A DNA stretch of 32,032 nt from an uncultured bacterium (GTDB taxonomy: Bacteria; Acidobacteriota; Thermoanaerobaculia; Multivoradales; JAHZIX01), in the NCBI GenBank assembly GCA_965368975.1, contig CBDUPA010000035.1, positions 1 through 32,032 of the forward strand, written 5' to 3'. The translations under genes were made by a program, and so were the position numbers. This document shows positions 1-4,211 of the stretch, in pieces; position 1 is the first letter of the stretch, and each line of letters starts with the position of its first letter. Under the pieces are notes generated by a model. It searched no databases, was not told the DNA's origin, and was given only the letters and a program-made list of their open reading frames with translations.

Positions 1-99
1 GACCGGGGACCGGTCTTCTTTGGCTAACGCGGCGACCGGGGACCGGTCTTCTTTGGCTAACGCCGTGACCGGGGACCGGTCTTCTTTGGCCAATGCCGG
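1..99. repeat. 33-bp tandem repeat, at least 3 copies, cut by window start
   Basis: GACCGGGGACCGGTCTTCTTTGGC(T/C)AA(C/T)GC.. starts at 1, 34 and 67; no spacers. Confidence 0.95.
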
Positions 100-258
100 C
101 TCCGAGGAAGGCTGGATTCCGGCGGCGAGGTGGCTGGCGGATCGGACCGCTCGCAGTGCCAGAGATCTTGCTTTCGACAGAAGTTCAGCAGGTGGGCTAC
201 CAGGCGGGCTTGTTGGAGTAGAGGAGGAGCTTATTTCTGAGTGTAAAGACATTGACAT
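1..258 (-). CDS. possible 5' part of a gene running off the window, with 11-aa repeat ALAKEDRSPV(T/A)
   Basis: Minus frame is stop-free from ATG 258 to base 1 (MSMSLHSEISSS...PALAKEDRSPVTALAKEDRSPVAALAKEDRSPV). No clear RBS and the ATG overlaps a plus-strand TTGACA, so the start is doubtful. Confidence 0.35.
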   Translation of the reverse strand, partial: MSMSLHSEISSSSTPTSPPGSPPAELLSKARSLALRAVRSASHLAAGIQPSSEPALAKEDRSPVTALAKEDRSPVAALAKEDRSPV

Positions 259-279
259 TTCCAGATGCGATGGTATGGT
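252..279 (+). promoter_or_regulatory. sigma70-type promoter
   Basis: TTGACA 252-257, 16-bp spacer, extended -10 TGG-TATGGT 271-279. Confidence 0.6.
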
Positions 280-285
280 TGGACG

Positions 286-345
286 TGAGAAGGCGTCACC
301 TTCTCCATCCCTCCGAGGAGTGCGAAGGGCACTCCTCCTTTTTTT
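286..345 (+). ncRNA. candidate ~60-nt small RNA
   Basis: Directly after the promoter: stem GAGAAGG/CCTTCTC (287-305), linker CATCCCTCC (306-314), terminator stem and U7. Confidence 0.5.
315..345 (+). terminator. intrinsic terminator
   Basis: Perfect 9-bp stem GAGGAGTGC-gaagg-GCACTCCTC followed by C and T7 (339-345); may also protect the 3' end of the convergent 361..939 mRNA. Confidence 0.8.
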
Positions 346-360
346 GCCCGCACGAACGAA

Positions 361-939
361 TTAGTTGCCGAGCAGGCCGGCTTTGAAGTCGGCGCTGGGT
401 GGGGTCGGGCCGATCCAGCAGCCCCACAGGGCGTCGGCGAAGTCCTTGCCTTCGATCGTGCCGAGTGCCTTACCCTCGAACTGGACCTCGGTACCAGTCC
501 CTGGAACATAGGTGTAGACGTACTGGCTACCGTCCTTGGCGTCCTGCATCAGGGTGCAGAGAGCCTCGAACTTGCTCTTCAGGTCAGCTGAGGCACCGGG
601 TGTGTTGGCCTTCAACCCGTCCTGCCAGCCGCCGCAGATCTTCTCGGCGTCGACGCTGCGCACGAATTGCATGATCACCTGGCGCGGCTCGTCGGCCGCC
701 AGGATGGCGGCGGCATCGTTCTGCTGGGCCGGCAGGTACAGGCCTGCGACGTAGACCTTGAAGATCATCTTCGAGCGCAGGCCAGTGCCGTTGAGTACCA
801 GGGTGCCGCCACCGACGGTAACGTCGTCCGGTAGCTCGACGCCAGCCAGCTTGGCTGCGTGGCTGGGGGCTGGAAATGCCAGCCACAGCAGAGTAAGCAG
901 GCCGAGTGCTAGAGCGCAGAGAGAACGGCGGCTGGGCAT
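361..939 (-). CDS. secreted chalcone isomerase-like (CHI-fold) protein
   Basis: Signal peptide ending PSHA-A; LVLNGTGLRSKMIFKVYVAGLYL and IEGKDFADALWGCWIGPTPPSADFKAGLLG are typical of the bacterial CHI-like family; RBS AGGAGG. Confidence 0.85.
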   Translation of the reverse strand: MPSRRSLCALALGLLTLLWLAFPAPSHAAKLAGVELPDDVTVGGGTLVLNGTGLRSKMIFKVYVAGLYLPAQQNDAAAILAADEPRQVIMQFVRSVDAEKICGGWQDGLKANTPGASADLKSKFEALCTLMQDAKDGSQYVYTYVPGTGTEVQFEGKALGTIEGKDFADALWGCWIGPTPPSADFKAGLLGN

Positions 940-961
940 GGTATATCCTCCTGAGGATTCT

Positions 962-988
962 TACGTATCTATCGGCATGCCGGGTTCC
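962..988 (-). promoter_or_regulatory. candidate ECF-sigma promoter for the CHI-like gene
   Basis: GGAACC (988-983) - 17 nt - CGTA (965-962), about 10 nt upstream of the AGGAGG RBS. Confidence 0.45.
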
Positions 989-1018
989 TGGAGGCGGTCG
1001 ACCACATGGGAACGCGGC

Positions 1019-1684
1019 TTGACGAACGACGACGGGCCGCAAGGCCCTGCTCCAACGATACCCCATCAGAGTCCGAGGGAGGACGCCATCGCCGCCGCGA
1101 TCTCCGACGTGGAGCTGGTCGAGCGTGCCCTGGCCGGAATGCAGGAGGCGTTCCGTGAGCTTGTGCAACGCTACCAGCGACCGGTGTACACACTCGTTTT
1201 GCGTATGGTGCGCGATCCGTCGCGCGCCGAGGAACTGGCGCAAGACGCCTTCCTGAAGGTCTACCGCAAGCTGCACACCTATGACACGCGGCGCAAGTTC
1301 TCGAGCTGGCTGTTCAAGGTCGCCCACAACACCACGTTGGATTTCCTGCGCAAGAAGGCGCCACAGGTGGTCTCGCTGGAGAGTGATGATCTGGACCCGT
1401 CCTACCGCGCTGAGCTGCAGGACACCTCGGCCGCGTCGCCGGATGAGACGTTGGAGCGAGCGGACCTGGCCTCCGCGCTGGAAGCGGCGGTCGCGGAGCT
1501 GGCACCGCACTATCGCGAGATCGTGCTGCTGCGGTTCGGGCAGGATTTGGCGTACCAGGAGATCGCCGAGGTCACCGGGCAGCCGATGGGGACGGTGAAG
1601 GTCCAACTGCACCGGGCGCGCAAGCAACTCGTCGCGGGGCTGCAGCGGCGTGGCATTTCCGCCGCGACACTGGCCCAGCCTTGA
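1019..1684 (+). CDS. ECF RNA polymerase sigma factor (SigW/RpoE-like)
   Basis: Region 2 (AFRELVQRYQRPVY, AEELAQDAFLKVY, FSSWLFKVAHN) and region 4 (LAYQEIAEVTGQPMGTVKVQLHRARKQL). Start uncertain (TTG 1019 or ATG 977); the track start at 758 overlaps the divergent gene. Confidence 0.92.
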   Translation: MTNDDGPQGPAPTIPHQSPREDAIAAAISDVELVERALAGMQEAFRELVQRYQRPVYTLVLRMVRDPSRAEELAQDAFLKVYRKLHTYDTRRKFSSWLFKVAHNTTLDFLRKKAPQVVSLESDDLDPSYRAELQDTSAASPDETLERADLASALEAAVAELAPHYREIVLLRFGQDLAYQEIAEVTGQPMGTVKVQLHRARKQLVAGLQRRGISAATLAQP

Positions 1685-1722
1685 GTCGCTGGAAAGCATG
1701 AGACAATACGCGCCTCAAGGCG

Positions 1723-1749
1723 TGAAACACGCGTCGAGCCCACCTCGTA
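1723..1749 (+). promoter_or_regulatory. SigW-type ECF promoter
   Basis: TGAAAC (1723-1728) - 17 nt - CGTA (1746-1749), matching the Bacillus sigmaW consensus; RBS GAGGAG follows at 1761. Confidence 0.65.
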
Positions 1750-1774
1750 GGGCCGGTTGAGAGGAGACGCACCC

Positions 1775-2449
1775 GTGAGCCGCATAGACCCTTCATCCCC
1801 GCAACGTCGAGCCGCCGAGGCCGCGAGTTCCGCTGAGCCAGATCTGGCAGCGGCGGTCGCGGCGTGGCTGTGCCGCGAAGAGGGGGAGGAGTTCGCGCGT
1901 TCCGAAGTCGACGTCTCGACCGAAACCGCGTCCGAAGCAAGAATGGCCGAGGTCCTGGTGACGGAGGCGACGCTACGCCGTGTCTTTCGTCGACTGCCAG
2001 AACCAGCCGTGCCCGCGAGCTTCACCCATGCCGTGATGGCACGGGTGGCTGCGCAGCCGGATGCCGAGCGTGTGTGGCTGCGTCGATTGGAGCGCTGGGT
2101 TGGCCCGGCGTTCCTGGTGGCAGCGGGGCTTTTCTTGCTGGTGTTGCCGCCTCTGCTCAGCGCCTGGTGGGGCGACGCCGGACTCGGTGTGCACAGCATC
2201 GGTACCGCGGCGCACGGGCTGGTCGCGCTGGCTGCCGACTGGGCACGTGCGGCACTGGCCTTCTGGGCCTGGGTTGCTGGTCTTCTGGGCACCCTGCTGC
2301 GCGCCTTCGCCAGTGTTCCGGGGCTGATGATGCTGACGACCTGCGCTCTGCTCGGTCTGGGGACCTGGTCCCTGGTCGGTGGCCAGATCGCGGCGCGTGT
2401 CTCCTCTCGATCGAACCTGTCCAAAGGGCCTTTCCTGAGAGGAGCGTGA
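1775..2449 (+). CDS. putative membrane anti-sigma factor
   Basis: Follows the ECF gene; GTG 1775 after GAGGAG; LRRVFRRLPEPAVPASFTHAVMARV helix typical of anti-sigma N-domains, then several hydrophobic segments; no HxxxCxxC motif. Confidence 0.65.
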   Translation: MSRIDPSSPQRRAAEAASSAEPDLAAAVAAWLCREEGEEFARSEVDVSTETASEARMAEVLVTEATLRRVFRRLPEPAVPASFTHAVMARVAAQPDAERVWLRRLERWVGPAFLVAAGLFLLVLPPLLSAWWGDAGLGVHSIGTAAHGLVALAADWARAALAFWAWVAGLLGTLLRAFASVPGLMMLTTCALLGLGTWSLVGGQIAARVSSRSNLSKGPFLRGA

Positions 2450-2453
2450 GCCG

Positions 2454-4211
2454 ATGTCCCTGTCGACCCTGAAGCGCGTTGACCTGCTGCGAGTCGTGGG
2501 TCTACCCCCGGCCGCGAGGTTCTTGCCGGCTGTGTCCCGAAGAGCTGCGCCCCGAAGAGCCGTGTCCCAGCTCCTCGGGCTGAGCCTGACGGTTCTGTGG
2601 GTGGGCTTGTCCATATCACTGGCGATCGGTCTGGCGCCGACCGCCCAGGCTCAGGATGCCTCACAGGCTCTGGCGGAGAGCTTGCGCGAGCGCTACGAAA
2701 TTCTGCCGCTCCAAGGCACTGAAGGGCTGGCGCTGATTCCCCTGGACCCGCCACCGGGCGTGCGTTCCGTGCGCATCAAGGGTAACGAGATTCGCGTCAA
2801 CGACGCGCTGGTACCCCCGGACGCGCTACGGGCCTGGCTGCGGGACGACGCCGAAGCACTGCTGCGCCTGGCCGACTTGCCTCCCAGGGCTCGCCTGCGG
2901 CTGTTGGGCTTCGAGGCGCCCGAGTTGGTCGCGCAAGGCACGCCGCCACCGCCGTCCAGGGCCGTCGAGTCCCCGCTGCCTTTGGCGGACGCGCCGGAGC
3001 CGGACGCGCCGGTTCTGGACGCGCCGGTGACGGGTGCTGAACCCCTGTCTCCGGAGAATCCGGCAGAGCCCGAGCCGTCGGCAATCCCCGAGCTGGAGAT
3101 TCCCGAGGTGCCGGAGCCGGAGCGTGTAGAGATCCGGATCGAGAGTGACACCCGTCTCAGCTTCGGCTCGTCTCTGACCATCGAAGCGGACGAGGCGGCG
3201 CAAGAGGCGGTGTCCTTCGGTGGTCCGGTCGTGGTGCGGGGGCGGGTTCGGGGGGATGTCGCATCCTTCGGCGGTCCGGTGCGCGTCAGTGGCCAGGTGG
3301 ATGGCGACATCTCGACCTTCGGCGGTCCGGTCTACCTGGCGGAGACAGCCGTGGTCTACGGCGACATCATCACCCTCGGCGGCAACGTCGAACGTGAGGA
3401 CGGTGCTCAGCACTACGGCGAAGTGAGCGGGGTCAATATCGGTAGCGACCTGCTCCGGATCGGTGATTGGGACGACTTCAACATCGACATCGCCCCTTGG
3501 GGGCCCTGGTGGGGCTTCGACCGCCACGGCTACGACAACGACATCGCCGATGCCATCGGCCACATGGTGTTGCTCGGCGTCTTGGTGTGCCTGGTGCTTG
3601 CGCTGGTGCGGCCGCGCGTCGAGCGGATTCGCCTGGCGATCGCCGAAGAACCCTGGCGTGCCGGTTTCCTGGGGATTCTGGCGACCGGCCTGTTCGGCTT
3701 CGTCAGCCTGGTCTTGTTGGTGTCGATCATCGGCTGGCCAGTGTTGGTGCTCGGCGTCTTGGCGTATATCGTCTTCGCCGTCGTCGGCTATGCCGCGGTG
3801 GCGTACCAGCTCGGCCGGTACCTGGAGACGCGCTTCGACTGGCATCCCGGTAGCTTCTACCTGCTCGCCCTGGCCGGTGTGTTGCTGATTCAGGGCTGGT
3901 CGCTGGCCGCTGAAGTCATGGGCCTTGCCGGCTGGCCGGTGGTCATCTTCACCGTACTCCTGGGTCTCTTCGGCTTCTGCGCTCAGTTCGCTGCCTGGAT
4001 GGTGGGTCTGGGCGGAGTGGTTCTCAGTCGTAGCCAGCCGGCCGTGCCCGTTTCTGGTGTGCCCGCTCCGGTCGAGCCCATTCCGGCAACTGGGCCCTCG
4101 CCTGGGCATGAAGCTGGCCCTTCGACTGGCCCCGTCCCGCCACCGCCGGTGCCTCCTGCCGCGTCGCCGGGCGAGTCCGTTCCGGCACCTTCGGAGAGTG
4201 AGACACCTTGA
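2454..4211 (+). CDS. membrane protein with bactofilin/polymer-forming-like beta-helix repeats
   Basis: Signal/TM ending AQA-Q, Pro-rich linker, repeats SFGGPVxVxGxVxGD, about 5 C-terminal TM helices, Pro-rich tail. Confidence 0.75.
   Translation: MSLSTLKRVDLLRVVGLPPAARFLPAVSRRAAPRRAVSQLLGLSLTVLWVGLSISLAIGLAPTAQAQDASQALAESLRERYEILPLQGTEGLALIPLDPPPGVRSVRIKGNEIRVNDALVPPDALRAWLRDDAEALLRLADLPPRARLRLLGFEAPELVAQGTPPPPSRAVESPLPLADAPEPDAPVLDAPVTGAEPLSPENPAEPEPSAIPELEIPEVPEPERVEIRIESDTRLSFGSSLTIEADEAAQEAVSFGGPVVVRGRVRGDVASFGGPVRVSGQVDGDISTFGGPVYLAETAVVYGDIITLGGNVEREDGAQHYGEVSGVNIGSDLLRIGDWDDFNIDIAPWGPWWGFDRHGYDNDIADAIGHMVLLGVLVCLVLALVRPRVERIRLAIAEEPWRAGFLGILATGLFGFVSLVLLVSIIGWPVLVLGVLAYIVFAVVGYAAVAYQLGRYLETRFDWHPGSFYLLALAGVLLIQGWSLAAEVMGLAGWPVVIFTVLLGLFGFCAQFAAWMVGLGGVVLSRSQPAVPVSGVPAPVEPIPATGPSPGHEAGPSTGPVPPPPVPPAASPGESVPAPSESETP
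2529..2568 (+). repeat. 15-bp in-frame tandem repeat (2.7 copies)
   Basis: GCTGTGTCCCGAAGA GCTGCGCCCCGAAGA GCCGTGTCCC. Confidence 0.75.
2987..3027 (+). repeat. 15-bp-period in-frame repeat (DAP x3)
   Basis: GGACGCGCCGG at 2987, 3002 and 3017. Confidence 0.8.

Follow-up and report, generated by a model that had tools for sequence, protein, structure and literature searches.

A predicted small RNA gene with an anti-Shine-Dalgarno-like linker beside an ECF sigma factor locus belongs to a conserved family found in one bacterial order

The window analysed here is a stretch of 32,032 nucleotides (nt) from contig CBDUPA010000035.1 of an uncultured bacterium (assembly GCA_965368975.1; contig C35 in our numbering), and our subject is a short unit at its left end, at 252-345 on the plus strand, that has the features of a small RNA (sRNA) gene. 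The unit sits in a 102-nt spacer between two co-directional genes of the minus strand and lies antisense to their strand: a HAL2-type nucleotidase gene on its 5' side and, on its 3' side, the gene of a secreted protein resembling chalcone isomerase (CHI-like), beyond which lies a gene for a sigma factor of the extracytoplasmic function (ECF) type (Table 1). An earlier reading of the same DNA, hereafter the original prediction, had proposed an unannotated sRNA at a place where no credible plus-strand gene could account for a plus-oriented terminator. That absence holds up, as both flanking genes are on the minus strand and no plus-strand gene ends at the unit, the 5'-open plus-strand open reading frame (ORF) at 2..364 being without a Pfam match.

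Table 1. Positions of the unit's elements and of the genes around it in the window.
Feature	Position	Strand	Remarks
HAL2-type 3'(2'),5'-bisphosphate nucleotidase, 5' part	258..1	-	ATG 258 (or 252); continues on contig C53
-35 hexamer TTGACA	252..257	+	overlaps ATG (258-256, minus strand) of the HAL2-type gene
Extended -10: TG 271-272, one base, TATGGT 274-279	271..279	+	16-nt spacer from -35
Predicted RNA of ~60 nt	286..345	+	covariance model R1 matches 285-348; predicted start 7 nt past -10, predicted end in the U-tract
5' hairpin (hairpin 1), 7 bp	287..305	+	GAGAAGG 287-293 / loop CGUCA / CCUUCUC 299-305 (DNA: loop CGTCA, CCTTCTC)
Linker with putative seed	306..314	+	CAUCCCUCC (DNA CATCCCTCC), anti-Shine-Dalgarno-like; unpaired in minimum free energy and centroid structures
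Terminator hairpin (hairpin 2), 9 bp, 6 G-C	315..337	+	GAGGAGUGC / GAAGG / GCACUCCUC; DNA arms GAGGAGTGC (315-323) and GCACTCCTC (329-337), then C338
U7 tract (T7)	339..345	+	plus strand only
CHI-like secreted protein, Chalcone_3	939..361	-	PF16036, E 2e-48; convergent to the sRNA
ECF-type sigma factor	1019..1684	+	Sigma70_r2 and Sigma70_r4_2; start uncertain (TTG 1019 or ATG 977); same orientation as the sRNA

Read from 5' to 3', the unit consists of TTGACA, a 16-nt spacer, TGgTATGGT, 7 nt, hairpin 1, CAUCCCUCC, hairpin 2 and U7, and every one of these elements lies where the original prediction had put it. The promoter is the sole sigma-70-like site on either strand of window 1-2000, where a scan found one site against 0.4 expected in shuffled sequence. 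From the predicted start onwards (286-346) the RNA folds into exactly two hairpins and leaves the nine linker bases free, a minimum free energy structure of -27.2 kcal/mol that makes up 87% of the ensemble (z = -3.7); adding three upstream bases to the fold lets part of the linker pair with these, which precede the expected start. On the minus strand A7 precedes hairpin 2 and GGAGGGAUGG comes after it. With its U-tract confined to the plus strand, the hairpin does not qualify as an ordinary terminator for the CHI-like gene, which is on the minus strand. The stop codon of that gene is 13 nt away from where the match to covariance model R1 ends and 24 nt from the beginning of the hairpin. The stretch 252-345 is very probably a self-contained gene for an RNA of about 60 nt, with a promoter and a terminator of its own.

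Comparison with related genomes shows that the unit is one member of a family. When 246-346 served as BLAST query against 201 genomes of the order, a single clear match (E 3e-4) emerged, in genome G039, where a locus downstream of a CHI-like gene repeats the unit as TTGACA, -10, 7-bp hairpin, UCAUCCCUCCC, 9-bp hairpin and U7. Pattern searches of related loci yielded six further copies, and seven homologues, with the window left out, were aligned to build a covariance model with two stems, R1. This model recovers the window copy with 47.2 bits (E 9e-13 for the window and 2e-10 for the genome, both rough because the calibration was short), which is the only R1 match at E <= 1 in the 7.1-Mb genome. 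Among 150 genomes of the order, 65 match R1 at E <= 1e-3; 59 of these score at least 44.9 bits, and the remaining six have weak matches of 24.6-28.7 bits only. The 59 include one genome that is unpublished, G144; leaving it out gives 58 of 149, and none of our claims depends on it.

Strong matches are distributed unevenly over the taxonomic families of the order. They were found in every genome of f2 (8/8), f3 (8/8) and f5 (1/1), in 19/21 genomes of f6 and 20/21 of f7, in single genomes of f4 (1/22) and f9 (1/21), and in none of f10 (0/10), f8 (0/21), f11 (0/10) and f12 (0/1), nor in the other members of f1, the window's own family (0/5). Most carriers have a single copy, some of them in genomes that appear complete as single contigs, and three (G056, G088 and G120) carry tandem pairs, an arrangement common in multi-copy sRNA families. 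The paired copies are ~160-230 nt apart (G056:C152:1150-1446, G088:C57:110627-110855 and G120:C12:12204-12465). No R1 match at E <= 1e-7 was obtained in 113 genomes from other orders of the class. A phylum-wide sample gave R1 matches in 11 of 149 other genomes, at only 27-36 bits, and the C/U-rich core was missing from 6/6 of the alignments inspected. Likewise there was no R1 match in 24 CHI-like loci of other lineages, and no relative of the CHI-like protein in genome and metagenome contigs exceeded 57% identity. Among the genomes sampled, the sRNA family is thus confined to one order, probably of Acidobacteriota.

The family is not catalogued in Rfam 15 and is a new family of a well-known kind of sRNA. 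Over the whole window no Rfam 15 entry matched at gathering score; a scan of window 1-1100 at E <= 10 returned noise, the only match over the element being a Giardia snoRNA (E 4.1), and a scan of five strong members at E <= 1 found nothing on the RNA bar a noise-level group-II-intron match (E 0.47). The claim that an unannotated sRNA lies here is strongly supported by comparison with the homologues, through the covariance model, the covariation and the synteny of the loci alike.

We aligned 31 copies, the window's included, in 31 rows (30 of them distinct) fitted to the model structure. Standard pairs occupy 99.2% of the 479 pair cells, and both sides have changed in 5/16 pairs (a number reached by 1/500 shuffles), counts that lean towards structure because the alignment is model-fitted and many of its rows are kin. 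The covariation score is 0.179 vs 0.129 (0/500 shuffles), and controls in which partners were slid by 1-3 columns are 56-82% paired. In hairpin 1 all 7 pairs are kept in 30/30 distinct rows; in hairpin 2 98.5% of cells are paired, with double-sided changes in 4/9 pairs, and the clearest covarying pair, 43-61, divides into 17 rows with A-U and 13 with G-C. The window copy has double changes of its own in both stems, G-C to A-U at columns 6-20 of stem 1 and C-G to U-A at columns 45-59 of stem 2, each with pairing kept, which argues against a decaying copy.

The promoter is conserved with the same regularity. The -35 hexamer is TTGACA in 30/31 copies and TTGACT once, the spacer is 16-18 nt long in 31/31 while its sequence differs between families, and the -10 is TAnnnT in 28/31, the three exceptions (CAnnnT) all belonging to one genus. 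TGn precedes the -10 in 16/31 copies, and the distance from the -10 to hairpin 1 is 7-10 nt in all 31 (7 nt in the window), so that the hexamers hold their position throughout. In the linker, the CAUCCCUCC core is present in 31/31 rows, and CUCAUCCCUCCC is invariant in the 30/30 other copies, flanked in the family by CU before the core and CAAC after it; the window's flanks differ and its linker is ~5 nt shorter. Promoter, stem 1 and linker, the three parts on whose conservation the original prediction had staked itself, are all conserved in the 31 aligned copies. To judge from these patterns, structure, promoter and putative seed are under selection.

In several other members, for example L073:1487-1551 (G039), the 5' arm GGGGAGG can pair either with CCUCCUC of hairpin 1 or with the seed CCCUCC. 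The minimum free energy structure of the G039 copy pairs this G-rich arm with the seed, and the window copy, with its seed free in 87% of the ensemble, has lost the ambiguity. The folds hint that the anti-Shine-Dalgarno-like segment may have two alternative displays in some members.

A search of sequencing runs for this DNA turned up no RNA run. Near relatives of the window itself are present in DNA contigs from 4 runs in 3 studies (soil, sludge and freshwater sediment), which are ~88% identical to it and cover window 206-986. Within 246-346 the differences listed are 277 G>A (4/4 runs), which turns the -10 into TATAGT and so improves it, 284 C>T (3 runs) and 286 T>C (4/4); among the differences listed none falls in 287-346 and none at the -35. 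Directly past the U-tract, 347-362 carries at least three substitutions and 13 inserted bases, and 486-628 in the CHI-like gene has at least 31 differences, mostly at third codon positions. Among the differences listed, at least 3 in 101 positions (246-346) thus compare with at least 31 in 143 (486-628; Fisher p = 2e-5), a comparison to be read with the reservation that differences private to runs X3 or X7 within 246-346 may lie outside those listed. The 3' end of the CHI-like gene (363-409) also shows only 2 among the differences listed (400 and 408), so near-identity extends beyond the sRNA, possibly through recombination or overlapping constraint; 410-471 is confounded by additional contigs and unreadable. 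With the family, its covariation and these relatives considered together, we regard it as very likely that the element is a real functional RNA gene.

The genomic context of the family is reproducible too. An orthologous ECF sigma gene (48-60% identity) is found in 26/31 loci, on the RNA strand in 23 of those and divergent in 3. A CHI-like gene lies within ~510 nt in 22/31 loci, convergent to the RNA in 19/31, the window included, and upstream and co-directional in 3, all of one genus; 9/31 loci have no nearby CHI-like gene, one of these being cut at a contig end. In four of the loci without it (L105, L108, L109 and L110) the sigma gene directly follows the RNA, its tblastn alignment starting ~55-150 nt behind. 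Given these counts, the window's order of sRNA (+), CHI-like (-) and sigma (+) is the family's usual arrangement. The gene on the RNA's 5' side varies between families. In the f3 loci L092, L096 and L103 a minus-strand gene with a signal-peptide-like N-terminus begins just upstream of the sRNA promoter, and in several genomes, therefore, the sRNA gene is antisense between two co-directional genes.

In the reading we prefer, and hold to be likely as a whole, the sigma-70-type promoter (TTGACA, 16 nt, TGnTATGGT) would start transcription ~7 nt past the -10, giving a transcript that opens with a 5' hairpin, continues unpaired through the C/U-rich CAUCCCUCC and closes with a Rho-independent terminator, hairpin 2 and U7. 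The RNA would act in trans, its seed pairing with purine-rich ribosome-binding sites and blocking the initiation of translation. In their standard form, base-pairing sRNAs have a promoter to themselves, a hairpin at the very 5' end, then an invariant stretch left unpaired and a terminator that ends in a U-tail, and the anti-Shine-Dalgarno tail of 16S rRNA includes AUCACCUCC. Since the seed is C/U-rich like that tail, its natural partners would be ribosome-binding sites of the GGAGG type, the type seen in front of the CHI-like genes of these genomes. We lean somewhat towards an sRNA that acts by base pairing through this seed. Among the genes of this genome is one for an Hfq homologue (63 bits, above the Pfam cut-off), and the 3' hairpin and U7 tail of the predicted RNA would be a plausible Hfq handle; the sRNA is possibly Hfq-dependent.

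Besides the two reservations attached to the pair counts and to the metagenome differences, several points weigh against this reading. The window copy is the lowest-scoring of the 31 aligned copies (47.2 bits vs 75-90 for the other 30; strong matches outside the 31 range from 44.9 to 75.5), its linker has 9 unpaired nt vs ~14 in the family, and it is the only copy in 6 genomes of f1. A duplex scan of the 31 loci found no conserved seed-complementary site within +-1.5 kb, only the RNA's own antisense strand, and the 8-mer complement GGAGGGAT is not enriched before ORF starts (32/93 vs ~19-41% for 12 shuffled controls). Finally, because the -35 overlaps the HAL2 ATG and the unit is antisense to its neighbours, some of the conservation or function could belong to the minus-strand transcript.

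This last point leads to the alternative that survives best, which we still consider unlikely: an antisense RNA acting only in cis, by pairing or colliding with a minus-strand transcript running from the CHI-like into the HAL2-type gene and thereby causing its cleavage or transcriptional interference. The position of the unit between co-directional genes, with the -35 over the start codon of the downstream one, is what this explanation would expect, as are the frequent convergence of the CHI-like gene, whose tblastn alignment ends 11-508 nt from the RNA 3' end in the 19 convergent loci, and the fact that a scan of window 1-2000 found no sigma-70-like promoter on the minus strand from which the HAL2-type gene could be read. 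However, a cis-antisense RNA complements its target whatever its sequence, which leaves no reason for 12 nt to be invariant across five families, and the explanation sits poorly with the nine loci without a nearby CHI-like gene, with the three in which RNA and CHI-like gene are co-directional, and with the change of the 5'-side gene from family to family. In the window's genome, any transcript reading through from the CHI-like into the HAL2-type gene would be complementary to the whole RNA, so that a cis-antisense side effect is possible.

A protein-binding sponge or decoy, in which an RNA-binding protein would attach to the C/U-rich stretch, or the stretch would mimic the 16S 3' tail, instead of pairing with mRNAs as a seed, strikes us as quite improbable. 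Twelve invariant nt are long for a seed, the searches of the 31 loci (+-1.5 kb) and of the genome 8-mers found no target enrichment, and in some members two C-rich segments are alternative partners of the 5' G-rich arm, which suggests that the display can be switched. Against this, there is no known candidate protein and no conserved neighbouring gene for an RNA-binding protein, and the succession of hairpin, unpaired seed and terminator is established as standard for base-pairing sRNAs.

Less probable again is a 5' leader or attenuator of the ECF sigma gene, with the terminator controlling read-through. Where a sigma gene is present (26 loci), it shares the RNA strand in 23, and it is directly behind the RNA in L105, L108, L109 and L110, yet a full convergent gene separates the two in 19/31 loci, the window's among them, the sigma gene is divergent in 3, none was found in the available stretch of 5, and the fold revealed no alternative anti-terminator pairing with hairpin 2.

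That there is no RNA gene at all, the hairpins serving only to end the CHI-like mRNA, as its 3' structure or terminator, and the promoter hexamers being a matter of chance, is close to refuted. A hairpin so soon after the CHI-like stop codon, with a convergent CHI-like gene as the family's commonest neighbour, would fit such a structure, but the U-tract is on the opposite strand, the hexamers keep their positions in 31/31 copies though the spacer sequence varies, the family also occurs at the 9/31 loci without a CHI-like gene, and 0/24 CHI-like loci of other lineages have the element; the original prediction had named such a role of the hairpin in what would refute it, and the evidence rules against it. 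A small-protein gene on the minus strand can be dismissed, since the seed complement GGAGGGAUG does form a Shine-Dalgarno-like run (GGGAGGG) followed by AUG, but with only 0-1 nt between purine run and start codon, an ORF of anything from 9 to at least 100 codons across loci, and conservation that ends after the first 4-5 residues, themselves fixed by the RNA sequence.

Returning to a trans-acting sRNA with a C/U-rich seed, we may ask how it relates to its neighbours. A functional tie between the sRNA and the adjacent ECF sigma module is a tentative proposal, in our estimate a little short of an even chance; it rests on adjacency, and the sRNA's own promoter is sigma-70-like. More speculatively, and in our view doubtfully, the RNA might be the non-coding arm of an ECF-sigma module conserved within one acidobacteriotal order, a constitutive mimic of the anti-Shine-Dalgarno sequence that restrains mRNAs with strong Shine-Dalgarno sites, probably envelope mRNAs, and is modulated by activation of sigma and CHI-like genes. 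Repression would then be relieved or reinforced when sigma and the convergent CHI-like gene switch on, for example by convergent transcription into the sRNA gene. If this were true, it would define the first conserved, experimentally tractable trans-acting sRNA regulon for Acidobacteriota.

A sigma-dependent promoter of the CHI-like gene was considered and dropped. The ECF-type pattern GGAAC-N15-19-CGT is present only in the window, at 1/22 loci, and is without support in the others, which have a sigma-70-like -10 of the TAGACT type.

The closest analogues in mechanism are the cuckoo or alpha-r14 sRNAs of Alphaproteobacteria (CcsR1-4/RSs0680 and NfeR1), described in passages of two papers as short and trans-acting, with an unpaired C/U-rich anti-Shine-Dalgarno-like sequence, CCUCCUCCC, as the only conserved sequence and with stems that vary by compensatory change (PMC4615179, PMC10746234). 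The same passages report a conserved genomic context for 14/17 RSs0680a homologues and direct binding of one RSs0680-family member by Hfq (PMC4615179, PMC10746234). An unpaired anti-Shine-Dalgarno-like motif, with stems that vary by compensatory change, is what the window family shares with them. In the cuckoo RNAs, however, as the relevant part of one paper has it, CCUCCUCCC is placed in the loops of 2-4 adjacent hairpins (PMC4615179), whereas the window RNA has its CUCAUCCCUCCC-type motif once, in the linker. Because the motif, its site (the linker and not the loops, CGUCA and GAAGG) and the lineage all differ, the window RNA is not a cuckoo member, and none of the Rfam 15 families of that kind matched at E <= 10.

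Two further comparisons are instructive. MicA, RybB and MicL are base-pairing sRNAs that repress translation at or near ribosome-binding sites; their promoters are sigma(E)-dependent, and they are not encoded beside rpoE. The section of the literature consulted places these enterobacterial sRNAs in the sigma(E) envelope-stress response, an ECF sigma circuit (PMC4102768). The window family differs in that its promoter is sigma-70-like (TTGACA/TAnnnT) and its link to a sigma factor is physical adjacency to the sigma gene. RsaE/RoxS of Firmicutes, for their part, pair through unpaired C-rich motifs with G-rich Shine-Dalgarno regions, have a terminator hairpin and are broadly conserved in their lineage; they differ from the window RNA in motif (CCCC), structure and lineage, and the Rfam scan gave no match to them.

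Acidobacteriota are among the most abundant soil bacteria, and to our knowledge their RNA regulators are almost unknown. The original prediction had spoken of a lineage with few described sRNAs, and this agrees with the table of a 2022 review, which gives 4 annotated sRNAs for the phylum (PMC9029176). In open-access full text, with subscription journals and supplements outside the scope of the search, we found no acidobacterial sRNA of such a kind. The present work adds to this poorly charted phylum an sRNA family for which promoter, structure, seed and phylogenetic range are defined. What is new is a family from a neglected lineage and not a principle, since base-pairing sRNAs with an anti-Shine-Dalgarno-like seed are already well known. 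Its reproducible association with an ECF sigma/anti-sigma locus is a testable lead on function, its occurrence in apparently complete single-contig genomes makes Northern blots, deletion and target capture feasible, and the covariance model R1 could be proposed as a new Rfam entry.

The remaining observations concern the surroundings of the unit. In the five other f1 genomes (L019-L023) the HAL2-type gene is divergent from the orthologous sigma gene (53-55% identical); the two lie ~150-250 nt apart, and both the CHI-like gene and the RNA are missing at these loci, where an unfiltered R1 search stayed at <= 6 bits; the only CHI-like orthologue in f1 (G003) is not syntenic. Either loss in the relatives or gain in the window's genome would explain this difference. 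A GGAAAC-like motif is conserved on the sigma side of the intergenic gap in L019-L023.

A candidate paralogue at C10:135114-135146 (-), with 17 nt identical to hairpin 1 (TGAGAAGGCGTCACCTT, E 0.07), was rejected as a family member because R1 has no match there and its orientation is opposite to that of the adjacent terminator. This intergenic stretch (G000:C10:135114-135146) reads TGAGAAGGCGTCACCTT and then CTCATCCCTC, and forms a hairpin of its own.

The HAL2-type nucleotidase is well supported by profile matches (TIGR01330 at 314 bits, above the cut-off, and PF00459 at E 3e-44) and runs off the left end of the window, which starts at the first base of contig C35. Bases 1-98 are a 33-nt tandem repeat in 3.0 copies; at least 3.6 copies of the same repeat, on the same strand, close contig C53 (G000:C53:8067-8187), and C53 therefore very probably precedes C35, the repeat being what breaks the assembly between the two. 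The repeat is in frame in the HAL2-type gene, where its 11-residue unit AKEDRSPVxAL duplicates the conserved K-x-D-R-S-P-V-T motif. In the 13 orthologues compared, the motif occurs once, without the repeat, and the protein begins ~30 residues before it.

Behind the sigma gene, window 1757-4211 (+) holds two ORFs. The first, of 230 residues, is in the position of an anti-sigma factor and has a hydrophobic stretch, with no Pfam match; the second encodes a membrane protein of 585 residues with a weak bactofilin match (21.9 bits, below the cut-off).

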